DNA of 9,481 nucleotides, taken from positions 1 through 9,481 of the IMG/VR virus record IMGVR_UViG_2711768076_000006; one strand, written 5' to 3'. Origin of the DNA: a virus. Taxonomy: Duplodnaviria > Heunggongvirae > Uroviricota > Caudoviricetes. Numbering within the stretch: the first letter of the stretch is position 1; the number at the start of each line of letters is the position of its first letter. The notes beneath the pieces are model-generated. The model was not told the DNA's origin, searched no databases, and saw only the letters and a list, made by a program, of their open reading frames with translations. The translations under genes and the position numbers were made by a program. Shown here piece by piece: positions 1 through 9,481 of this stretch.

Positions 1-676
1 GCAGCGGCGCAAGATTTTTTGTGCGCTGCTTCAGTATGCTGGTGGCGGTCTGCTCTCCCGGTACGATGTCGCTTTCGCGGTACACCGAGCGGATTTTTTC
101 CGCACGCAATCCCAGAGAACGACGTAATACTGCCTCCGGCAATACGTCCGCTACCTGATTGCAGACCGCCCACCAGGATAATTCAGCCAGCGATAACTCC
201 CGCTCCTGTGTACCGTTTATTGCGTGGCGGATGACGTCAATCATCCAGGATGTCAGGTTTTGTTGAGCAAGTTGCCCGAGTGATTCTGAAGTCTGGTCGC
301 GTAACTGATTATCACAGTGCCAGCACAATACCATCGCGCCGGTACCGTAACGATGTATGACGGTTTCACTGTGGTGGTAGTCACCATGAGGCCACTGGCA
401 GGATTTAACATGGCGTAACAGCCAGTCAGACAATGCGCCAGCGCCGCCAGCAGCACGAATCACCCGCTCATCGCTGAAAAATGGCAGTAATGATTTATCT
501 TCCGCGAGCGGCTGGCGCACGGCAGGAACAGCTCCTGACGGCAGACCGCGCATGCTTTTCGGTTCCGGCTCCACCAGCACCCGGGGATTATGAAATACCT
601 GCATGGATTCACGGCCCGGCTTAAGGACCACCAGCCCGAGTTCCGGTACCAGAACAGGTCGAAGTAATACCCGCAC
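1..676 (-). CDS. DUF968/YdfU-like prophage protein, N-terminal part only (C-terminus lies beyond the window start)
   Basis: Hand translation of the - strand gives one frame with no stop from 679 down to position 1 (about 226 codons); the ORF track omits it because it has no stop inside the window. Possible starts are GTG at 676 (GGAGG 4 nt upstream) or ATG at 604. Contains a CWHCDNQ and His-rich stretch. Sits next to hok and rem-like as in Qin (hokD-rem-ydfU). Confidence 0.55.
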   Translation of the reverse strand, partial: MRVLLRPVLVPELGLVVLKPGRESMQVFHNPRVLVEPEPKSMRGLPSGAVPAVRQPLAEDKSLLPFFSDERVIRAAGGAGALSDWLLRHVKSCQWPHGDYHHSETVIHRYGTGAMVLCWHCDNQLRDQTSESLGQLAQQNLTSWMIDVIRHAINGTQERELSLAELSWWAVCNQVADVLPEAVLRRSLGLRAEKIRSVYRESDIVPGEQTATSILKQRTKNLAPL

Positions 677-677
677 G

Positions 678-956
678 TTACCTCCAGATACGCTGCTGGA
701 ATGTGCGAGACGGACGCGGTGGGCGTTCAGAGTAAGGAAGCCTGACGGAGATTATCCAGTGACGATAATCGAGGCTGAGGGCTTTCTTAATCTCGTATCC
801 GTGTCTGCGGTAGCACTGAATTAGCCACTCGGCCTGTTCTTCAGTGCATGGGTCATGCTGGAACCAGTCAGATTTGAAAGTGCGGGAACGCCGCCCGTGC
901 CTGCTGGCAAAGACGGCAGAATCATCAGAATTGTGTAATTTGGTATCGTGCGCCAT
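678..956 (-). CDS. Rem-like small prophage protein (92 aa, function unknown)
   Basis: Trimmed from track ORF 678-1085. The 5' extension of that ORF covers the hok terminator hairpin at 1027-1055, so the ATG at 956 (MAHDTKL...) is the likely start. Its TAA stop is 1 nt from the GTG of the next gene (TAAcGTG). Position matches rem in Qin. Confidence 0.5.
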   Translation of the reverse strand: MAHDTKLHNSDDSAVFASRHGRRSRTFKSDWFQHDPCTEEQAEWLIQCYRRHGYEIKKALSLDYRHWIISVRLPYSERPPRPSRTFQQRIWR

Positions 957-1026
957 CGGTTGTCTCTGCTGGCGCAGCAGGTGCCAGTTGTTCAGGCTGG
1001 CGTGCGAATTGTAAACCAGAATGCCA

Positions 1027-1055
1027 GGAAAAAACAAAACCCGCCGAAGCGGGTT
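1027..1055 (-). terminator. Rho-independent terminator downstream of hok
   Basis: On the - strand, hairpin AACCCGC-TTCG-GCGGGTT followed by TTGTTTTTTCC, about 70 nt after the hok stop. Confidence 0.6.
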
Positions 1056-1123
1056 AAGTGCGGGTGCGTTGAGGATGCCTGACACATCAGAGGTGGCGAG
1101 GGATTTCTCCCCCGCCTGGTCTC

Positions 1124-1279
1124 TTACTCCTCAGGTTCGTAAGCTGTGAAGACAGCGACCTCCGTCTGGCCGGTTCGGATTCGTACCTCGCAGAGGTCTT
1201 TCCTCGTTACCAGTGCCGTCACTATGACGGTTAAACAGATGACGATCAGGGCGATTAACATCGCCTTTTGCTGCTTCAT
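1124..1279 (-). CDS. hokD: Hok/Gef-family type I toxin, 51 aa membrane peptide
   Basis: MKQQKAMLIALIVICLTVIVTALVTRKDLCEVRIRTGQTEVAVFTAYEPEE is a canonical Hok sequence and matches HokD/RelF as I recall it. AAGGAG lies 9 nt upstream of the ATG at 1279. Confidence 0.85.
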   Translation of the reverse strand: MKQQKAMLIALIVICLTVIVTALVTRKDLCEVRIRTGQTEVAVFTAYEPEE

Positions 1280-1336
1280 AGCCTGCTTCTCCTTGACCTT
1301 TCGGTCCGTAAGAGGCAATCTATATGTGACGAGCAT
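1124..1336 (-). CDS. mok: Mok reading frame (in-frame N-terminal extension of hok that couples hok translation)
   Basis: ATG at 1336 in frame with hok adds MLVTYRLPLTDRKVKEKQA, which resembles the N-terminus of chromosomal Mok peptides (mokC MLNTCRVPLTDRKVKEKRA from memory). Confidence 0.55.
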   Translation of the reverse strand: MLVTYRLPLTDRKVKEKQAMKQQKAMLIALIVICLTVIVTALVTRKDLCEVRIRTGQTEVAVFTAYEPEE

Positions 1337-1378
1337 ATAGGGGCCTCACTTCGATTTATAGTCGGGTGGGGCTTTTAT
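1315..1378 (+). ncRNA. sok: Putative Sok-type antisense RNA opposite the mok translation start
   Basis: Inference from hok/sok architecture. + strand TTGACC at 1293-1298 is a possible -35, but no good -10 hexamer follows at 16-19 bp spacing. Imperfect hairpin GCCTCAC (1343-1349) / GTGGGGC (1365-1371) is followed by TTTTAT. Boundaries are approximate. Confidence 0.3.
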
Positions 1379-1471
1379 CTATCTGCCGTTGGTGTTCATG
1401 CCCGAGGCAGATAGCCTCAAGCACCCGCAGCAATTCTACTTAACTCTGCCGTTACAGCAAACCGTTTTCGC

Positions 1472-1495
1472 CCGATATGGGAATTCCCATATCGG
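1472..1495. repeat. 24-bp perfect palindrome CCGATATGGGAATTCCCATATCGG, function unknown
   Basis: The sequence equals its own reverse complement. It lies between the solute-binding-protein gene 3' end and the hok leader, with no U-run on either strand, so it is not a canonical terminator. Confidence 0.9.
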
Positions 1496-1560
1496 AATGA
1501 ATTCAGTTCACCTGGCGAGGCTTAGCGTACAATTTTTTCCGTTTTGTGAGCTGCCCCTAC

Positions 1561-1612
1561 ATGCCGCTGGCGCGGCATCCGGAAAAAGAATCCACGTCCT
1601 GAAGGACGTGGA
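1561..1612 (-). terminator. Rho-independent terminator region for the solute-binding-protein gene
   Basis: On the - strand, hairpin TCCACGTCC-TTCA-GGACGTGGA (1591-1612) followed by TTCTTTTTCC, then a second hairpin ATGCCGC-GCCA-GCGGCAT (1561-1578); starts 6 nt after the stop at 1618. Confidence 0.55.
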
Positions 1613-1617
1613 GGATG

Positions 1618-2376
1618 TCAAGTGCCTTTCCTGGTCCAGCCATATTTTTTGAATGCAGGCGCCGCTTCATCGGTTTGTAGCCATTCTGCAAATCGACGGG
1701 TTTCATCATTTGCATCCTGACGTACTGTAATGTTCATATCACGCCATATCACGTAGTCTGGCGCTATTTCCACGACATCACCAATTTCTGGATTACTGGC
1801 TGCCCAGTCAGCCCAGGTTATCCAGACATCTGCTCCAGGCTGATTCTCAAGAGCCTTACGTGCAGTTCCGCTATTGGGCGCATATAAAATAATATTTTTT
1901 CGGATTGCGGCGACAGTTTCTATATTCCCTTTACGTCCGGCAATATCTTCCCAGACGCCAGTGCCTGATGTATTACTGGTACCACCACCATCATTAACAA
2001 TTACGCCAATCCCGGGTCTGGTCAGGTCGTCAATACTCCGGATATTTTTAGGATTACCTTTCTTTACCAGTAAAATACTTTTTCGCAGATAAAGAGGCTG
2101 AATATCTTTTTCACTGAAGCTGTCTTTATGGTCCCGAATGATAGCCAGAGCAGATTGTTCTGATGCGCCAAACAAGATATCTGCATTTTTTTTGGCATCT
2201 TCATTCCATTTGTTCTGTGGACCGTAATGAACGTTCACTATAACACCTGTTTTTTCGGCATAAAGTTTGGCTGCTTCAAGCAAGGCTGTATGCGGGCCAC
2301 CAGGACCATACAGATTGATATCAGCATAAGCAGCAGAAGACAGGAATATTAAAAAACCTGCCATTATGTTCCTCAT
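1618..2376 (-). CDS. Secreted periplasmic solute-binding protein, ModA/WtpA-like, with no cognate transporter genes in the window
   Basis: 252 aa. N-terminal signal peptide MRNIMAGFLIFLSSAAYA with an AYA-D cleavage site. Mature N-terminus INLYGPGG...AEKTGVIVNV and C-terminus ...FKKYGWTRKG follow the ModA-type binding-protein pattern as I recall it. AAGGAG 7 nt upstream of the ATG. A 260-bp AT-rich region lies upstream. Confidence 0.85.
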   Translation of the reverse strand: MRNIMAGFLIFLSSAAYADINLYGPGGPHTALLEAAKLYAEKTGVIVNVHYGPQNKWNEDAKKNADILFGASEQSALAIIRDHKDSFSEKDIQPLYLRKSILLVKKGNPKNIRSIDDLTRPGIGVIVNDGGGTSNTSGTGVWEDIAGRKGNIETVAAIRKNIILYAPNSGTARKALENQPGADVWITWADWAASNPEIGDVVEIAPDYVIWRDMNITVRQDANDETRRFAEWLQTDEAAPAFKKYGWTRKGT

Positions 2377-2540
2377 AAAAAACTCCTTTTATTGGTTATC
2401 ATGAAATAAAATTATAAACACCACAAATAATATATATTATATCCAGATAAACTTATCCGACTTTACCTCGTGCATAGCTTGTTATTTAAAGTTAACAAAA
2501 TAAGGAAAATTATACGCATATTGAAGAGTATAAACCTTAC

Positions 2541-2568
2541 ATGTTGATTACATTTTTGTAATCAACAT
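2541..2568. promoter_or_regulatory. 12-bp perfect inverted repeat (ATGTTGATTACA-TTTT-TGTAATCAACAT), candidate operator upstream of the solute-binding-protein gene
   Basis: Seen directly in the sequence, about 170 bp upstream of the ATG at 2376 in the AT-rich region. A TATAAT hexamer lies between the repeat and the gene on the - strand (near 2505-2510). Confidence 0.4.
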
Positions 2569-2794
2569 CCTGTTTGGAATAGCCAGCCTTTAATGGATAA
2601 CTATTTCTGACAATGCAATGAGTATAATCAAGTCCATCTTCCACTGAGAATTAGAGGCGGCATGCTTTTTCCGGCTCTTGCCGGATATCCGTAATTGTCC
2701 ATAATCTGCAGATTTATACCTTCTGCATGACCTGTCAGCGAAAATTTGTCCGGTGTTTCTACGGGAATGACATCAAAAGTTACACGCACTCGCG

Positions 2795-3106
2795 TTACCG
2801 TGTAGACCTACTTTCCTGCACTTGCAAGATCACAGTGGTGTAACCGTAACAGGAATTTATTCTCTGGACCGGCAGTAAATCCCTGAGTGGCGTGGTTCCC
2901 ATATCAATTTCCCGCCAGGCAGCCTCCATTGCCAGCGTACAGGCTGGAGCCATGACCTGCCCTTTAAATCTGGCCCGACCATCCCACCGGACGTGTTCTT
3001 CTCCCCTGAACTTAGGTACAGTCATCTCCAGTGGCACAAAAGTGTCAGCGCCATGATTTTTGACCGTTATCGCGCTACGGATATTTTGTTGACTGGTGAA
3101 AATCAC
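2795..3106 (-). CDS. Hypothetical protein (103 aa), weak call, possibly a gene remnant
   Basis: Track ORF that starts with GTG and has no clear RBS; no family recognised. It is in the same frame as the DUF1627-like gene but separated from it by at least three stop codons. Confidence 0.2.
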   Translation of the reverse strand: MIFTSQQNIRSAITVKNHGADTFVPLEMTVPKFRGEEHVRWDGRARFKGQVMAPACTLAMEAAWREIDMGTTPLRDLLPVQRINSCYGYTTVILQVQESRSTR

Positions 3107-3235
3107 CCCGCAGAATCAGGCTTATTCCCTTAACCCGGGATTTCATCCTGACCGCCGCCTCACTACGACCAATCAGACTGCCGATGCATTTTACCTTCAT
3201 TGTTAGTATCATGATTTCAGGCCTGCACCATCCGC

Positions 3236-4033
3236 TCATTGCCCGGACTTCCGACAAATCCCGGCAACCATATCCCGGTGCTTGTTCAACTCCCGCAGCG
3301 CGGCGCAGACTCGCTCCCACTTCTGGACATGATTCTTCGCCCTACGCAGTTCGCGATTTGCCATATGCAGCGATGGCAAAATCAAATCATCTTCTCGCGT
3401 TGCAGTAAACGATGGCAGCGACTGCACAATGTCCGCCACAGTTTCTGTTTTAATATCTTCCTGTGTTGCATCTTTCTGTACCGGTAACGCAACACCGGCT
3501 GGCTGAGGAAAGGCTTTACCATCGGTTTCCGTTACCGATACGGCTTTCGGCTTTGCTGGTAAATTATCGTCCGGCATGCAGTAACGGAATTTACCGTTCT
3601 GATTTACGCGAATCAGACGCCCTTTGCTGATTGCCATTGCCAGCGTTGAAGCTACTTTGCGTGATGTGGTACCGAACAACGTAGCCAGTTCATCCGCCGT
3701 TTGTGGTCCGCGTTGTTCAATCGTCGCGGTTAAATCGCACTCTGAGATTTTCGCTACTGTTGCTGTGGTGGTTTCTTCCGGCAGCTCTGCCTGCGCTGGC
3801 TGTTCCTGCTGAACGTTGTTATCAGCCACACGCCAGGTGTACGCGCTTTTATCAACAAAACCAGCCTTTTTCAGTTCCCATAGTTCGTTAAGCACTTCTT
3901 CACGACTGACATCAAGTCGCGCCGCAAGTTCTATGGATGTGGCTTTTCCCATTGCTTTCAGTGCGTCAAAAACAGTCTCCATTAAATTTTTTTCCTGGTA
4001 AAAATTACTTTGTGATTCCTGGCTGGACGACAT
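3236..4033 (-). CDS. DUF1627-like prophage protein with an N-terminal winged-helix-like domain and an acidic linker
   Basis: 265 aa ORF directly downstream of the DnaC-like gene, the usual position in Rac-type prophages (ydaW position). The ATG at 4033 overlaps the DnaC-like 3' end by 29 nt; the alternative ATG at 3982 ([13 protein letters not shown]...) is also possible. Confidence 0.75.
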
Positions 4034-4751
4034 TCGGGCGCCAGCTTTCCCAGTTAAAACTCACCCAGCGTCCGCCGTTCATGGTCATGCGATCCATAAT
4101 CCGCTCACCGAGCAATGTTTTCATGGCCTCATAGTTCAGGTTTGTCAGCATTCCCACGCTACGCATCGACGCTGTCCGTCGATCAATAATCTGGTGCAGT
4201 ACTACCTGCTCGTTTTTCGTCTCGCGCTGAATGCCAATTTCATCAAGAACCAGCAGATCCACTTCGCACAGTTCCCGCAATAATTTTTCGCCTGACTGCC
4301 CGTCGTCATAGCTGGCATGCAGGGCACTCATAACATCAGCCACGGTAACCACAATCACTGCCTGACCGTCTTTCAGCAGGCGATTTCCGATAGCTGCCGC
4401 TAAATGGTTCTTCCCGGTACCAGGTTTTCCGCTGAACGCAAAATTTGTACACCCGGTCATCAGTTCATCGGCGATGGATTTCGCCTGGCTTAACGCGTAT
4501 CGCTGGCCGTCGTTCTGCACCTGGTAATTTGCAAACGAGCATTTACGATGCAACGGCTGGATGCCTGAGCGATTCAGAATTTTTTCCACCCGCAACTGAC
4601 GATTCAGGCGGTTGATCTCCTCGCTACGTTTTCGCCCTTCTGCAAGCTGCCACTCTCGCCACTCGTCCACTGTCCGGCACGGCGCGGTTACATGCTGCGG
4701 AGTCAGCTTACGGATACGTTCAAGAACACCGCCTGTCGCAATATTTTTCAC
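4005..4751 (-). CDS. DnaC-like replicative helicase loader (AAA+ ATPase), YdaV-like
   Basis: 248 aa with Walker [16 protein letters not shown] and Walker [12 protein letters not shown] start with GGGGG 9 nt upstream; begins 7 nt after the O-like stop. Confidence 0.9.
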
Positions 4752-4757
4752 AGTTCG

Positions 4758-5723
4758 TTACCCCCTAAACCCCGGCGGAATTTCGGTGTCTGGTTCAGAA
4801 ATATGATTCACACAACGCTGTACAGGTGAACGCCCCAGGCGGATGACCAGTTCGTCCCATTTTTCGCGGAGCTTTGACGGGCTCATGATGTTTTTTACCC
4901 AGAATGGATCCCGCTGTACCCGCCCAAACATTTCGCAAATTTGTCTGTGAGTTCTGCCATCCAGCATCCGCATTGTGCGCACATCATTGGCCCATGCGGT
5001 CCAGTTTGGTTCTTTCGGTCGCGAGATCTCGCCATCATCGCTGGCAGCCTGCTCGTAAAGACTCACAATTCGTCCCCAGATCCACTGTGCGCACGCCAAA
5101 TCTTCCTGACTTCCCCACTGGCGTTTTTTCGCACTGAACACAACCGCGTCAGGGTGTCGGGTTAAAAAATCCTGTTCAGCCGTCTGCGGGTCCGGTTGCG
5201 AAGCTTCCGGACGAGAAGTGTTTTTATTCTCTGTAGTAATCTCTGTTGTATTCTCTGTAAGATCATCAGGCCATTTTGACCCGATGACATTGGGTCGTTT
5301 TGAACCAATGGAGCGTGCCATTTTGACCTCTTCCATCGTGTCATTTTGACCTGATGGAGCGGTGCATTTTGACCTGATGGATTCGCTCACTTTGCCACCA
5401 TCTAAAAGCTCACTCTCGTAATTAATCGTGTAAAAATTAGTCATATCACGCTTTGATTTGTTGAGCTTTTCACAACGCAAAAGCCCCAGCGTTTTCAGAC
5501 TTGCAAATGCGCGTTTTAACGTTGACTCTGACCAGAACGGGAACTGTTCCAGCCATTGTTCTGTTGTGTTATAAATCCAGCGAACACCATCACATTCCAT
5601 GCCGGAACCGGTATCTCTCAACCAGTAATGCAGCTGCTGCAACACGATGGCTTCGTTCAGACCAATTTTCATCGCCAGCTGCGTGTTTATAACCAGCGGG
5701 CGTTCAGCAAAAAGGAGCTTCAT
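4758..5723 (-). CDS. Phage replication initiator (replisome organizer, lambda O-like / YdaU-like)
   Basis: 321 aa. Lies immediately upstream of the DnaC-like gene, and the origin iterons are inside its coding sequence, as with lambda O. Confidence 0.88.
   Translation of the reverse strand: MKLLFAERPLVINTQLAMKIGLNEAIVLQQLHYWLRDTGSGMECDGVRWIYNTTEQWLEQFPFWSESTLKRAFASLKTLGLLRCEKLNKSKRDMTNFYTINYESELLDGGKVSESIRSKCTAPSGQNDTMEEVKMARSIGSKRPNVIGSKWPDDLTENTTEITTENKNTSRPEASQPDPQTAEQDFLTRHPDAVVFSAKKRQWGSQEDLACAQWIWGRIVSLYEQAASDDGEISRPKEPNWTAWANDVRTMRMLDGRTHRQICEMFGRVQRDPFWVKNIMSPSKLREKWDELVIRLGRSPVQRCVNHISEPDTEIPPGFRG
5227..5396. repeat. Probable prophage replication origin: six iterons at 23-bp periodicity plus an adjacent AT-rich block with three 12-bp repeats
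   Basis: CATTTTGACC-type repeats start at 5272, 5296, 5319, 5342, 5365 and 5388 (the second and last are degenerate). TCTCTGT repeats at 5228, 5240 and 5252. All lie inside the O-like gene. Confidence 0.7.
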
Positions 5724-5744
5724 CCCCTCCCCCAGAACACGTTA

Positions 5745-6170
5745 TCAATGCGCCACCACGGCATTTCCCGCCGGACCACCACGATTCATCTGATTGAAAC
5801 CAGCAATTACCACCGCGACAAGTTCATCAGCGTCTCTCACCAGTCGTTCATGCGTATCCACCAGTTCCCGAAAATAATCGGAACTGTGGCTGCGCATCCA
5901 GGCCACCAGCGGAGGTGGCATTGCCTTTTCGATCGCTGGTAACAAAGCCTGAATTTTTTTAACCGCATCAGGGGTGTCTTTCTCCACCCAGCGGAAAATT
6001 TTCTGAGTATTGCGAGCCAGGGCTTCCGGATGGCTGTCGTCATACAGTTCCGGGAATGTCATACCCAGCTCAAAATAAGCCCGGGTTATTTCAGCTGCCG
6101 GAACTTTTTCACCGTCCGGACGCGCCCAGGCATTCATCGCCATGCGGATGTGTTCATGCTTGATTTTCAT
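5745..6170 (-). CDS. ydaT: YdaT-like protein (toxic partner of the RacR-controlled ydaS-ydaT operon)
   Basis: 141 aa. AAGAGG 10 nt upstream of the ATG; overlaps the ydaS-like 3' end by 17 nt. Position and size match Rac ydaT (about 140 aa). Confidence 0.8.
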   Translation of the reverse strand: MKIKHEHIRMAMNAWARPDGEKVPAAEITRAYFELGMTFPELYDDSHPEALARNTQKIFRWVEKDTPDAVKKIQALLPAIEKAMPPPLVAWMRSHSSDYFRELVDTHERLVRDADELVAVVIAGFNQMNRGGPAGNAVVAH

Positions 6171-6477
6171 GAATCATTTGCCTCTTGATGCTTCGGGTAT
6201 GATCGTTTTTGTCATTTGGTTGCTTCATCGACATATTCTGCGAATAACATGACGAACGTCGTAAGTATGACCAGTCAACATCAGGACGAAGTTCTTCACA
6301 CAGGACTCCACCTTTTGTTGCTCGTTCAATCGCTGGACATCTCTCGGCAGGCAACCGACGTACACCTTTGATCCATTGATTTACGCTTGGAGGCGATACC
6401 CCTAAAAGTCTGGCCATTGCTGATTGCCCACCAACAACAGCACAAGCTCGTTTGAATGAATAGTTCTCTTTTTTCAT
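6154..6477 (-). CDS. ydaS: YdaS-like Cro/HTH-type DNA-binding protein
   Basis: Start taken at ATG 6477 (MKKENYSFKRACAVVGGQSAMARLLGVSPPSVNQWIKG...), with GGAG 9 nt upstream. Divergent from the repressor, with operators in the shared intergenic region. Confidence 0.8.
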   Translation of the reverse strand: MKKENYSFKRACAVVGGQSAMARLLGVSPPSVNQWIKGVRRLPAERCPAIERATKGGVLCEELRPDVDWSYLRRSSCYSQNMSMKQPNDKNDHTRSIKRQMIHENQA

Positions 6478-6499
6478 CGAATGAACTCCAAAAAACACA

Positions 6500-6572
6500 C
6501 AATGATATTAGGCGGCGCCTAATATCATTGTCAATAGGCTATGCCTAACAACCAAGAGGTAGGGATTGCCTA
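6500..6572. promoter_or_regulatory. Right-operator-like region: three TAGGC-N3-GCCTA palindromes in the racR/ydaS divergent promoter region
   Basis: Cores at 6509-6521 (inside a 14+3+14 bp perfect palindrome, 6500-6530), 6535-6547, and 6560-6572 (TAGGG variant). Centre-to-centre spacing is 26 and 25 bp. Confidence 0.6.
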
Positions 6573-6601
6573 ATGCAATGCACATAGGAGACTATTAAGC
6601 A

Positions 6602-7078
6602 ATGCTTAGTGGTAAAGACTTAGGCCGAGCGATAGAGCAGGCCATTAATAAAAAAATTGCATCAGGAGCCGTCAAATCAAAGGCGGAGATCGCACGCCAT
6701 TTCAAAGTCCAACCACCATCAATCCATGACTGGATTAAGAAAGGTTCGATAAGTAAAGATAAACTTCCAGAACTATGGCGTTTCTTTTCTGATGTGGTTG
6801 GTCCAGAGCATTGGGGGCTTAACGAATACCCCATACCAACCCCTTCCTGCTCAGATTCAAAAAGAGAACTTTTAGACATAAACAGCCTTTATCAAGCCGC
6901 TTCTGATGAAAAAAGAGCAATTGTAGCCTTCCTCTTATCTGGAAATGCTGCGGAGCCTGGTTGGGTTGATTATGACGTTCGCGCCTACATTACTGCAATG
7001 GAAATGAAGGTAAGTAACTATCTGAAAAATCAAGAATCAGAACGGAAAAGCCAGAACATCACCAAAACGGGAACTTAA
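6602..7078 (+). CDS. racR: Prophage repressor, RacR-like
   Basis: 158 aa (MLSGKDLGRAIEQAINKK...), the same length as Rac RacR. AGGAG upstream. Flanked on both sides by the same operator palindrome family. Confidence 0.82.
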   Translation: MLSGKDLGRAIEQAINKKIASGAVKSKAEIARHFKVQPPSIHDWIKKGSISKDKLPELWRFFSDVVGPEHWGLNEYPIPTPSCSDSKRELLDINSLYQAASDEKRAIVAFLLSGNAAEPGWVDYDVRAYITAMEMKVSNYLKNQESERKSQNITKTGT

Positions 7079-7175
7079 ACTTATATGGTCCGACGGGAAG
7101 CACCTAGATCCCGTTATTTAGCTCCCATTACCTCTTCCACATACCATCGCCTATTAGGTTGTGCGCAAAAGGCAT

Positions 7176-7213
7176 TAGGCATAGCCTATTGACAAGCAAT
7201 TAGGCATTACCTA
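7176..7213. promoter_or_regulatory. Left-operator-like region: two TAGGC-N3-(G/A)CCTA sites downstream of racR, upstream of the + strand early operon
   Basis: Cores at 7176-7188 and 7201-7213, 25 bp apart. The 21-mer at 7175-7195 is the exact reverse complement of 6528-6548. Confidence 0.5.
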
Positions 7214-7398
7214 TAGTTTTCTCATACCAACCCACCCCGCCCCACAGAATGCAGGGCAATACTTTGAGTTACCAGGCAGTGGTCAGGGGGTAAGTAGCCA
7301 GCCCGAGGCGTAAGAACATGACGGCAGGGTTCAACTTTAATAACTATGCAGCAGGTTTTTGTTCCGCTACCCCGGCGTTAAGGGGAAATGAGGTCAGC

Positions 7399-7554
7399 AT
7401 GGATACTATCGATCTTGGCAACAACGAATCTCTGGTGTACGGCGTGTTTCCCAACCAGGACGGTACGTTCACCGCGATGACGTATACCAAAAGCAAAACG
7501 TTTAAAACCGAAAATGGTGCCCGTCGCTGGCTGGAAAGATACTCAGGTGAGTGA
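7399..7554 (+). CDS. YdfA/YdaF-family small prophage protein (51 aa)
   Basis: ATG at 7399 with GAGG 5 nt upstream (MDTIDLGNNESLVYGVFPNQDG...). The alternative ATG at 7318 would give 78 aa. Confidence 0.6.
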   Translation: MDTIDLGNNESLVYGVFPNQDGTFTAMTYTKSKTFKTENGARRWLERYSGE

Positions 7555-7555
7555 T

Positions 7556-8131
7556 ATGGATTTCAACACGATCATGGGAAAGGCTTACGAAGAATACTTC
7601 GAAGGCCTTGCCGAAGGCGAAGAAGCTCTCAGCTTCAGTGAGTTTAAACAGGCACTCAGAATAAGAATGTGCTCTCACAATGACGCGGAGCACAAATATG
7701 AGAAGCAAAATCAGACCGCAGAAAATTTTGTTCTGGAACCCGGAGAAACGCTTTTCAAAATTCCCGTTACGTGCCCCATTTGCGGTTTTACATCAGAAGA
7801 ACTTGACGACTCCTGTAACAATCAGGAAACAACCAAGTATGTCGAAGATGATACCGAGTGCGCACGAAGAACGATTATATCCACGAGTCCAAACTCCAGG
7901 ACCAATAAATCTCACTTTGAGAGGGTGATTAATCCACTCCCCCAAACCAATAAAAAAGATGCCGGAGGACAAAAAACCCAATGGAACAACGGGATATCTG
8001 TCAAAAAAAGACGTTCCATTAAAGACAAACAACGCAGCGCCAACAACTGTAAGCACTTTATACCAGTAATCAATTTTCATGTTCTTAAGCGGATTTATTG
8101 GTGGTTGCGACATTGCTTAATGAATCCTTAA
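7556..8131 (+). CDS. Small early-operon protein whose frame runs on for 191 codons; only the N-terminal ~90 aa look protein-like
   Basis: ATG at 7556 is 1 nt after the upstream TGA, with GGTGAG upstream. Beyond about 7800 the frame is rich in AGA, AGG, ATA and CGA codons and lies antisense to a membrane-protein ORF. Confidence 0.3.
   Translation: MDFNTIMGKAYEEYFEGLAEGEEALSFSEFKQALRIRMCSHNDAEHKYEKQNQTAENFVLEPGETLFKIPVTCPICGFTSEELDDSCNNQETTKYVEDDTECARRTIISTSPNSRTNKSHFERVINPLPQTNKKDAGGQKTQWNNGISVKKRRSIKDKQRSANNCKHFIPVINFHVLKRIYWWLRHCLMNP
7793..8113 (-). CDS. Putative small inner-membrane protein in the sieB position (superinfection-exclusion-like)
   Basis: 106 aa with three hydrophobic segments (YKVLTVVGAALFVF, VVPLGFLSSGIFFIGLG, ALGIIFDILGCFLIVTGVV). 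ATG at 8113 with AAGGA 11 nt upstream; alternative ATG at 8080. Convergent with the early operon, as sieB is in lambda and Rac. Confidence 0.4.
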   Translation of the reverse strand: MSQPPINPLKNMKIDYWYKVLTVVGAALFVFNGTSFFDRYPVVPLGFLSSGIFFIGLGEWINHPLKVRFIGPGVWTRGYNRSSCALGIIFDILGCFLIVTGVVKFF

Positions 8132-8390
8132 AACTGTGGTGATTTTAAGGATACCACCTCGCCTGACGTTGTTAAAAGCAGGCACACAACACGAAAGCGC
8201 ACGGCGAAGTTCGTCTCACTGTACGGTGTCGTTAAATTTAATTCGACCGTGCGCTTCCGGTTGTGGCAACCCGCGAAATGGCGCGGCGGTAAGTATGGCG
8301 GGGTTATTCCTTCCCCGTTGAGGACACCGGGTTGTCAGGTTGACCATACGCTTAAGTGACAACTCCGCTGCAACGCCCTCTGTTATCAAT

Positions 8391-8448
8391 TTTCTGGTGA
8401 CTTTTGGCGGTATCAGTTCTACTCCGTGACTGCTCTGCCGCCCTTTTT
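8391..8448 (+). ncRNA. dicF: DicF small RNA (antisense inhibitor of ftsZ translation) with its 3' terminator
   Basis: TTTCTGGTGACTTTTGGCGGTATCAGTTCTACTCCGTGACTGCTCTGCCGCCC plus a T-run closely matches the K-12 DicF sequence as I recall it. It sits immediately upstream of dicB as in Qin. Confidence 0.7.
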
Positions 8449-8617
8449 AAAGTGAATTTTGTGATGTGGTGAATGCGGCTAAGCGCACGCGGAACAGTTA
8501 AAACCAAAAACAGTGTTATGGGTGGATTCTCTGTATCCGGCGTTAATTGTTAACTGGTTAACGTCACCTGGAGGCACCAGGCACCGCATCACAAAATTCA
8601 TTGTTGAGGACGCGATA

Positions 8618-8806
8618 ATGGAAACGTTATTACCAAACGTTAATACGTCTGAAGGTTGTTTTGAAATTGGTGTCACTATCAGTAACCCTGTATTTACTGA
8701 AGATGCCATTAACAAGAGAAAACACGAACGGGAGTTATTAAATAAAATATGCATTCTTTCAATGCTGGCCCGTTTACGTCCGACACAAAAAGGATGCTGG
8801 CAATGA
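8618..8806 (+). CDS. dicB: Cell division inhibitor DicB (62 aa)
   Basis: METLLPNVNTSEGCFEIGVTISNPVFTEDAINKRK... matches DicB from memory. GAGGA upstream of the ATG at 8618. Confidence 0.85.
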   Translation: METLLPNVNTSEGCFEIGVTISNPVFTEDAINKRKHERELLNKICILSMLARLRPTQKGCWQ

Positions 8807-8994
8807 ATACAGCATTTGCACTTGTTCTGACAGTTTTTCTTGTTTCCGGAGAACCAGTTGATATTGCAGTCAGTGTTCACAGGACAATGCAGGAGTGTGT
8901 GACTGCAGCAACCGAACAGAAAATTCCCGGTAACTGTTACCCGGTCGATAAAGTTATTCACCTGGATAATAACGAAATCCCGGCAGGTCTTTAA
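8803..8994 (+). CDS. ydfD: YdfD-like small protein with N-terminal hydrophobic segment (63 aa)
   Basis: ATG at 8803 overlaps the dicB stop (ATGA). MNTAFALVLTVFLVSGEPVDIAVSVHRT... AAAGGA about 10 nt upstream. Confidence 0.8.
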   Translation: MNTAFALVLTVFLVSGEPVDIAVSVHRTMQECVTAATEQKIPGNCYPVDKVIHLDNNEIPAGL

Positions 8995-9086
8995 AACAGT
9001 TCCGTAATAAACATCCGATTTCATTCTTATATGCCAGCAATGGCAGGGATTTGTTCACCCTTAAATCTGTAATGAGGTAAAACAAA

Positions 9087-9481
9087 ATGAGTAAAGTCTT
9101 TATTTGCGCCGCCATTCCGGACGAACAGGCAATAAAGGAAGAAGGTGCAGTCGCTGTAGCTACTGCCATTGAAGCCGGTGATGAACGTCGCGCCCGCGCA
9201 AAATTTCACTGGCAATTCCTGGAACATTATCCGGCTGCTCAGGACTGCGCTTATAAATTTCTTGTCTGCGAGGATAAACCCGGTATACCCCGCCCTGCCC
9301 TCGATTCCTGGGATGCTGAATATATGCAGGAAAACCGCTGGGATGAGGCGTCTGCTTCCTTTGTCCCGGTTGAGACTGAATCAGATCCGATGAACGTCAC
9401 TTTTGACAAGCTGGCCCCTGAAGTACAGAACGCTGTCATGGTTAAGTTCGACACATGTGAAAACATCACCGTTGATATGGT
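9087..9481 (+). CDS. ydfE: YdfE-like protein, N-terminal part only (continues past the window end)
   Basis: Hand-translated open frame from ATG 9087 (MSKVFICAAIPDEQAIKEEGAVAVATAIEAGDERR...) with no stop before the window end; TGAGGT 8 nt upstream. Absent from the ORF track because it has no stop in the window. Confidence 0.7.
   Translation, partial: MSKVFICAAIPDEQAIKEEGAVAVATAIEAGDERRARAKFHWQFLEHYPAAQDCAYKFLVCEDKPGIPRPALDSWDAEYMQENRWDEASASFVPVETESDPMNVTFDKLAPEVQNAVMVKFDTCENITVDM

Follow-up and report, generated by a model that had tools for sequence, protein, structure and literature searches.

The window analysed here is a stretch of 9,481 nucleotides of viral DNA (Caudoviricetes; IMG/VR record IMGVR_UViG_2711768076_000006, positions 1 to 9,481), and its subject is a cell-division-inhibition cassette at 8391-8994, composed of the small RNA (sRNA) gene dicF followed by dicB and ydfD, which lies downstream of a racR repressor gene. 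Over 6500-9481, the sequence matches the chromosomes of E. coli AMSHJX01 (from a giant panda) and ESBL 15 at 100% identity. The AMSHJX01 copy belongs to a lambdoid prophage, about 45 kb long and flanked by a truncated ydfJ and by rspB, at the site occupied by Qin in K-12. In contrast to Qin, it is apparently complete and carries the whole complement of head, tail, lysis, Q, replication, exonuclease, xis, and int genes. The gene order at the locus is racR, the left promoter and operator (PL/OL), ydfA, a ydfB-like start, an antisense membrane-protein gene, dicF, dicB, ydfD, a recE-like exonuclease gene, xis, and int.

The DicF sRNA and its terminator T-run are located at 8391-8448 on the + strand, with the 53-nt RNA at 8391-8443 and the T-run extending to 8448. 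The Rfam model RF00039 matched end to end (model positions 1-52 of 52) at 8392-8443 (+), with 71.5 bits against a gathering score of 48 and an E value of 1.3e-14. The alignment with K-12 dicF showed that two of 53 nucleotides differ, G12T (8402) and T29C (8419); the former falls in the single-stranded 5' arm and the latter in the hairpin loop, both off the terminator stem. The terminator hairpin folds at -15.3 kcal/mol (-15.9 in K-12) with TTTTT directly 3', so that the DicF sequence with its terminator, which a sequence-only reading of this DNA had called recognisable, is indeed present. Upstream, the DicF precursor region (8174-8390, +) lies within a 94% block common with K-12 Qin, and in K-12 it holds RNase III and RNase E processing sites. 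With an 85-nt query across dicF, the best match was at least 99% identical in 90 records, and among the matches listed (n=10, EAEC 042 included) all were 100% identical; the G12U/U29C DicF allele is not private to AMSHJX01.

Downstream of dicF, by 175 nt, lies dicB (62 aa; 8618-8806, +), which RefSeq annotates under this name. The Pfam profile DicB (PF05358) covers residues 1-62 with profile positions 1-62 (127 bits against a cut-off of 27, E 2.2e-37), and 55 of 62 residues are identical to K-12 DicB. The frame is intact, although its disruption had been named beforehand as a finding that would count against the cassette. The ydfD gene (63 aa; 8803-8994, +) matches Pfam DUF1482 (PF07358) with 88 bits against a cut-off of 25 (E 3.8e-25), its product is identical to K-12 YdfD at 58 of 63 positions, and its start codon shares the bases ATGA with the stop codon of dicB, an overlap also seen in K-12. 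It is followed by the 5' end of a RecE-like exonuclease gene (9087-9481, +; PHROG E 7.5e-97), which corresponds to the K-12 pseudogene ydfE and runs past the window; RefSeq gives a 2.5-kb exonuclease gene there, then xis and int. The whole of 8174-9481, from 218 nt 5' of dicF into the exonuclease gene, is one block 94% identical to K-12 Qin, in agreement with the earlier statement that dicF, dicB, and ydfD are all recognisable and stand in the Qin order.

These results bear on whether the cassette is a silent remnant, decaying prophage cargo kept by chance. Its best-studied copy sits in the defective prophage Qin, and the cassette is toxic on expression (PMC5069750), as might be expected of such a remnant. 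However, both open reading frames (ORFs) are full length, the DicF structure is intact, and the host prophage looks complete. Near-identical cassettes are also carried by the functional temperate phages HannyBb, Tritos, and mEp460 (mEp460_ev081), and 3,389 of 5,426 complete E. coli genomes have dicF; all genome counts below refer to this set of 5,426. We therefore regard a silent remnant as highly improbable.

The repressor gene upstream of the cassette, racR (158 aa; 6602-7078, +), carries the name RacR in RefSeq, and its product is identical to K-12 RacR at 141 of 158 positions and to DicA at 18%. Since Pfam and PHROG profile searches returned no family for this protein, its identification rests on the identity to K-12 RacR and on the operators described below. 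These values bear out the proposal that the immunity region in front of the cassette is of the RacR type and not dicA/dicC. Divergent from racR is a ydaS-like Cro-type gene (6154-6477, -), which matches Pfam YdaS_toxin (E 1e-29) and P22_Cro and is a helix-turn-helix protein in RefSeq. Its product is about 75% identical to K-12 YdaS; a YdaT-family gene is likewise divergent from racR, and its product is about 29% identical to K-12 YdaT. The segment 6147-7386, comprising ydaS, racR, and the region 3' of racR up to ydaG, aligns with K-12 Rac at 87%. The AMSHJX01 genome has only one racR, which ruled out cross-repression by a second resident racR.

Between racR and ydaS, the right operator/promoter region (6505-6572) contains RacR operator motifs at 6509-6521, 6535-6547, and 6560-6572. 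They overlap a ydaS-directed promoter on the - strand, with TTGACA at 6534-6529, an 18-nt spacer, and TAATAT extending to 6505. In K-12, DNase I footprinting of RacR gave the consensus (T/A)TAGGC-n3-GCCTA(T/A), and the PydaS hexamers are TTGACA and TAATAT (PMC9638921); the hexamers and the operator motif found here match the published ones.

On the other side of racR lies the left operator/promoter, the PL analogue (7176-7217, +). Its hexamers are TTGACA at 7189-7194 and TATAGT at 7212-7217, separated by a 17-nt spacer, and they agree with the consensus at 11 of 12 positions. This was the best sigma-70 match in the 2.8 kb (6400-9200) that we scanned for promoter-like and terminator-like sites, with a transcription start predicted near 7224. 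Two RacR motifs bracket it, the operator TAGGCATAGCCTA at 7176-7188, which abuts the -35 hexamer, and the operator TAGGCATTACCTA at 7201-7213, which overlaps the -10 hexamer. The window contains the RacR operator TAGGC-N3-GCCTA five times, where chance would give 0.15; three copies are between racR and ydaS, two at the left promoter, and none elsewhere. In addition, 6528-6548 forms a perfect 21-nt inverted repeat with 7175-7195, and therefore both promoters use the same operator-plus-(-35) module.

We then compared four racR loci, namely the present one, a further two of the racR-dicBF kind, and that of K-12 Rac. Their alignment showed 3 variable positions in the operator/promoter block, with more variable flanks. 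The motif occurs in the 3+2 arrangement in all four, and not once in the DicA-type loci of K-12 Qin and HannyBb. The K-12 intergenic region with dicBp and the DicA operators is absent, and a Rac-type region with the left promoter stands in its place. RacR control is well supported because dicBp is absent and a Rac-type promoter flanked by RacR operators is present, and the cassette is very probably under RacR control. The proposal of the sequence-only reading that control had been placed under a different repressor thus holds at the level of sequence, with dicBp gone and a near-consensus promoter overlapped by two RacR motifs. From a report on K-12, genes of the Rac left arm, among them ydaG, kilR, and recET, are derepressed when racR is silenced (bioRxiv 10.64898/2026.09.06.749655). 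Our literature searches on RacR with DicF, and on RacR with ydaS and operators, turned up no paper that explicitly describes operators for RacR at a dicBF promoter.

Another explanation is that the cassette is expressed without RacR, from an unrecognised internal promoter or by read-through from the racR (PRM-type) promoters, in which case the exchange of repressors would have no practical effect on control. The racR gene is co-oriented with the cassette, and the hairpin that follows it (7092-7115, +; GACGGGA / UCCCGUU, then AUUUAG) has a weak U-tract; a simple terminator scan made no call there. Moreover, uninduced stationary-phase K-12 cells accumulate DicF even though DicA is present, and dicBp can also fire independently of Rem (PMC10448788). 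On the other hand, the scan found no other promoter-like site on the + strand in 7218-8390, nor any terminator-like site. K-12 experiments revealed no internal promoter in the homologous region; there DicF is processed from the dicBp transcript through the action of RNase III and RNase E, and dicBp is the sole promoter found for dicBF (PMC10448788). The strongest promoter match in the 2.8 kb lies exactly between two RacR motifs and is conserved as a block with them. The hairpin shows one compensatory change (G-C to A-U) in the K-12 Rac alignment, and may act as a weak timm-like terminator, keeping racR transcription apart from the left promoter. We consider expression independent of RacR unlikely.

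To locate the point at which the Rac-like and Qin-like sequences meet, we compared the ends of their homologies. The homology to Rac gives out at about 7386-7390; that to Qin begins 38 bp ahead of the ydfA start codon, at 7361, and that to HannyBb at this same base. The module junction, judged from these alignments, is at about 7361-7390, 10-38 bp before ydfA. A linker of about 30-38 nt (GTTCCGCTACCCCGGCGTTAAGGGG...) is common to K-12 Rac, K-12 Qin, HannyBb, and this window, and the segment 7361-7398 (+), directly upstream of ydfA, looks like a recombination linker between immunity and left-arm modules. Module exchange at this linker would have swapped the DicA/DicC immunity region and dicBp for the RacR/YdaS region and its own left promoter, and appears from the sequence comparison to be the only real difference from K-12 Qin. 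The first gene of the operon, ydfA (DUF1391; 7399-7554, +), matches its Pfam family with E 4.6e-28 and is identical to K-12 YdfA at 50 of 51 positions. It is followed by a ydfB-like start (7556-7657, +), the beginning of a frame open to 8131 of which only the first 34 codons resemble YdfB (32 of 34 identical to K-12). Nucleotide identity to Qin is 94-97% from 38 bp upstream of ydfA to 7656, where the homology stops, and again from 8174, where it resumes. A Rac prophage with an acquired dicBF was ruled out by the Qin-type attachment site, left arm, and junction; the region is a Qin-site prophage with a Rac-type immunity module.

The K-12 Qin dicBF operon (ydfABC-dicF-dicB-ydfDE, with DicA/DicC and the antirepressor Rem) lies at the same site and has the same order of ydfA, dicF, dicB, ydfD, and exonuclease gene. 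It differs in that the window has RacR as repressor, another promoter and other operators, and no DicA-type dicBp. Furthermore, ydfC and most of ydfB are replaced here by a 0.5-kb segment with the antisense membrane-protein gene, and the exonuclease, xis, and int genes are intact here.

The early-left operon of K-12 Rac consists of racR, PL, ydaG, ydaF, sieB (on the opposite strand), kilS, kilR, and recET. Its racR, ydaS, both operator clusters, and left promoter are homologous to those of the window, the operator/promoter block being nearly identical, and in both a DUF1391 gene lies 3' of the promoter and a membrane-protein gene occupies the sieB slot on the opposite strand. Next come an sRNA with a terminator, a homologous leader, and an FtsZ-directed division inhibitor, the position of dicF being that of kilS. 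The dicB leader (8449-8617, +) belongs to this likeness: 8438-8602 is about 80% identical to K-12 Rac from the kilS 3' end to the kilR leader (7250-7416 of the compared Rac stretch). Because of this leader identity, the slot of sRNA, terminator, leader, and FtsZ-directed inhibitor is conserved with Rac, and the payload alone differs, DicF, DicB, and YdfD here and KilS and KilR in Rac. The comparison with a kilR-containing Rac that had been proposed earlier, run on K-12 Rac, thus gave a homologous promoter region and dicB leader and a different payload. The attachment site also differs, rspB here and ttcA for Rac. Across the leader there was also a weak match to Rfam STnc100 (8441-8650; 37.7 bits, under the gathering score of 47).

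Two further systems were compared. In prophage CP-933P of O157:H7 (PaaR2/YdaS/YdaT), PL933P lies 3' of the repressor gene, has PR-like hexamers and repeated operators, and was shown to be repressed by the CI-like repressor PaaR2 (PMC8630535), which offers an analogy, established by experiment, for control of the left promoter here. More generally, lambdoid prophages are noted to have genes for division inhibitors, kil and/or dicB, on the 3' side of the repressor gene (PMC8630535). CP-933P differs from the window in its operator consensus, which consists of GTTTAGTAA-type repeats rather than TAGGC-N3-GCCTA, and in a toxin-antitoxin pair in the repressor operon. The temperate phage HannyBb is 96.7% identical to 7361-9481, the variable 7657-8173 included, and has the same exo-xis-int tail, but its repressor is DicA-like (57% to DicA).

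Taking these results together, the region is probably (about 0.8) the early-left (PL-type) operon of a lambdoid prophage at the Qin site, controlled by RacR. In a lysogen, RacR on the two left TAGGC-N3-GCCTA operators and the three racR-ydaS operators would hold both early promoters off. RacR is a non-SOS, Gifsy-type repressor, and its inactivation would therefore probably come about through an antirepressor or a bistable switch to YdaS. Once RacR was inactivated, transcription would run from near 7224 through ydfA into the dicF region. By homology with K-12, RNase III and RNase E would free the 53-nt DicF, which would end at its own terminator, and read-through transcripts would give DicB and YdfD. 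If the products act as their K-12 orthologues do, DicF would pair with the ftsZ ribosome-binding site and block translation, DicB would inhibit division via MinC and block the ManYZ and FhuA-type routes of phage entry, and YdfD would act as a small lysis protein.

Several points weigh against this account. RacR binding at 7176-7213, the transcription start, and repression of the left promoter are all steps that we infer. The left operator has just two recognisable operators, one of them mismatched. Derepression of the left arm in K-12 could be partly indirect, for example via YdaS/YdaT or prophage excision, and the poor hairpin after racR could allow some repressor-independent read-through from the racR promoters. 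On its way to dicF, transcription must also pass through a convergent antisense gene (7793-8113), over about 320 nt. With respect to the products, the DicB C-terminus has 4 of its last 9 residues unlike K-12, and U29C removes one predicted DicF-ftsZ base pair.

To evaluate the target pairing of this DicF allele, we computed duplexes with the K-12 ftsZ sequence rather than that of the AMSHJX01 host itself. Full-length RNAduplex of DicF against ftsZ did not discriminate (-36.9 kcal/mol observed, -34.8 +/- 4.4 for shuffled DicF), and the alleles were therefore compared over defined segments. The loop and 3' segment of DicF (nt 24-53) is the region genetically shown to regulate ftsZ (PMC5069750). 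The predicted duplex of nt 24-53 with ftsZ -29..+1 has -26.6 kcal/mol against -27.9 for the K-12 allele, in an unchanged register and with the CUCCG:CGGAG core (anti-Shine-Dalgarno CUCCG) intact. The allele is thus predicted to keep its complementarity to the ftsZ ribosome-binding site. Divergence of dicF beyond folding or pairing with ftsZ, which the sequence-only reading had listed as a possible objection, was not observed in the alignment, where only the 2 substitutions occur and the fold and the predicted pairing are kept. In K-12, DicF also has the host metabolic targets xylR and pykA (PMC5069750). G12U (8402) is predicted to break the perfect 13-bp duplex of the K-12 DicF 5' arm with xylR +8..+20 (from -20.3 to -14.5 kcal/mol), and regulation of 5'-arm targets may for this reason be weaker; the predicted pykA pairing is almost as in K-12.

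These pairings and the position of the cassette bear on whom it serves. The sequence-only reading had considered the module as accessory DNA affecting host physiology. It may instead chiefly serve the phage, by a lambda kil-like delay of division in lytic growth together with exclusion of competitors via DicB acting on ManYZ-type receptors. The cassette occupies the early-left slot between immunity and exo/xis/int, as kil does in lambda and kilR in Rac, and it is carried by functional temperate phages. DicB-mediated phage exclusion has been published, and reportedly acts through inhibition of ManYZ-type receptors. On the other hand, the DicF targets xylR and pykA and the accumulation of DicF in uninduced stationary phase point to some role in the lysogen stage (PMC5069750, PMC10448788). 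A chiefly phage-serving cassette is a serious possibility at somewhat less than even odds; it is compatible with RacR control and differs from the host-physiology view only in the beneficiary.

More tentatively, and rather doubtful as a whole, the observations may be joined into one proposal. DicF, DicB, and YdfD behind RacR would add to YdaS/YdaT as a cause of racR essentiality and would answer to RacR-specific antirepressors rather than Rem, and the DicF allele (G12U, U29C) would be retargeted, with ftsZ pairing kept and the xylR seed broken, in a prophage that has type III effectors as well.

To determine how widespread the arrangement is, we searched the E. coli genomes with a chimeric query, racR and PL joined to the dicF-dicB-ydfD block, and required at least 80% to be covered in one place. 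The results showed that the racR-dicBF join is present in 235 of 5,426 genomes (about 4%), compared with 797 genomes for the K-12-type dicA join and 1,086 for RacR-type immunity regions. Examples include O103:H2 12009, O145, and O45:H2 strains. RefSeq already annotates racR, dicB, and the DUF1482 gene in racR-dicBF loci, and the occurrence of dicBF in multiple prophage contexts has been noted (PMC5069750). The arrangement is a routine mosaic of two well-characterised modules, and the combination is common.

The significance is modest, and the sequence is already in RefSeq. The locus provides a clear sequence-level example of lambdoid module exchange, in which the operators change together with the repressor and a short conserved linker marks the join. 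The same toxic payload is combined with no fewer than three repressor specificities: DicA of K-12, its 57%-identical relative in HannyBb, and RacR. What K-12 has shown about dicBF induction (DicA, Rem) would not be transferable to about 4% of strains, including O103:H2, O145, and O45 enterohaemorrhagic E. coli. In racR-dicBF strains, RacR and its inducers would be the relevant control, and racR knock-down phenotypes may include DicF/DicB-dependent filamentation.

The antisense gene inside the operon (7793-8113, -) encodes a 106-aa membrane protein and occupies the slot of sieB in Rac. In tblastn searches its product matched phage mEp390 with 40% identity over 104 aa (77.8 bits), whereas the annotated + frame over the same DNA (ORF 7556-8131, PGAP) reached 20.8 bits only. 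The protein has three hydrophobic segments and the motif GEWINHPLK, and a homologue also occurs in Burkholderia phage Bcep176. Substitutions relative to HannyBb did not identify the coding strand of 7793-8113, as only two differences occur there and each is non-synonymous whichever frame is read; the tblastn matches to distant phages decided the matter. It is probable that the annotated + ORFs, among them HannyBb CDS0038 and mEp390_039, are shadow ORFs; a strand mis-annotation inside the operon is probable, the real gene being the antisense membrane protein in the sieB slot. Bcep176 gp33 lies over the same tblastn match. A - strand promoter-like site was seen at 8175-8148, by the antisense gene.

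Beyond the immunity genes, ydaV (4005-4751) lies inside a block 93% identical to K-12 Rac, and the replication initiator gene (4758-5723) has 92% nucleotide identity to the HannyBb O-like gene rather than to K-12 ydaU. From these comparisons there is further mosaicism inside the immunity/replication region, at 4758-6170 (-).

The early-right region carries virulence-type cargo between the replication genes and hok, namely paa (AcfC-family adhesin Paa; 1618-2376, -) and a frameshifted fimbrial pseudogene (about 2537-3070, -). The AMSHJX01 prophage carries, besides the Paa adhesin, the type III effectors NleC, NleG, and a HECT-type E3 ligase. The genes nleC, the NleG-family gene, and that of the HECT-type E3 ligase lie at the far prophage end (NZ_CP030939.1 2708000-2713100), and because of these genes the DicF-bearing prophage is an effector-exchange prophage of an attaching-effacing-type strain. 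By the hok locus, a weak IsrK-like Rfam match at 1034-1115 (-) scored 27.2 bits (gathering score 50; E 0.011) and is likely marginal or a chance match. The hok/sok type I toxin-antitoxin locus itself (1124-1426, -) matches the hokD region of K-12 Qin at 99% identity; the Rfam sok model gave 103.9 bits at 1277-1426, and RefSeq places hokD at 1124-1279.

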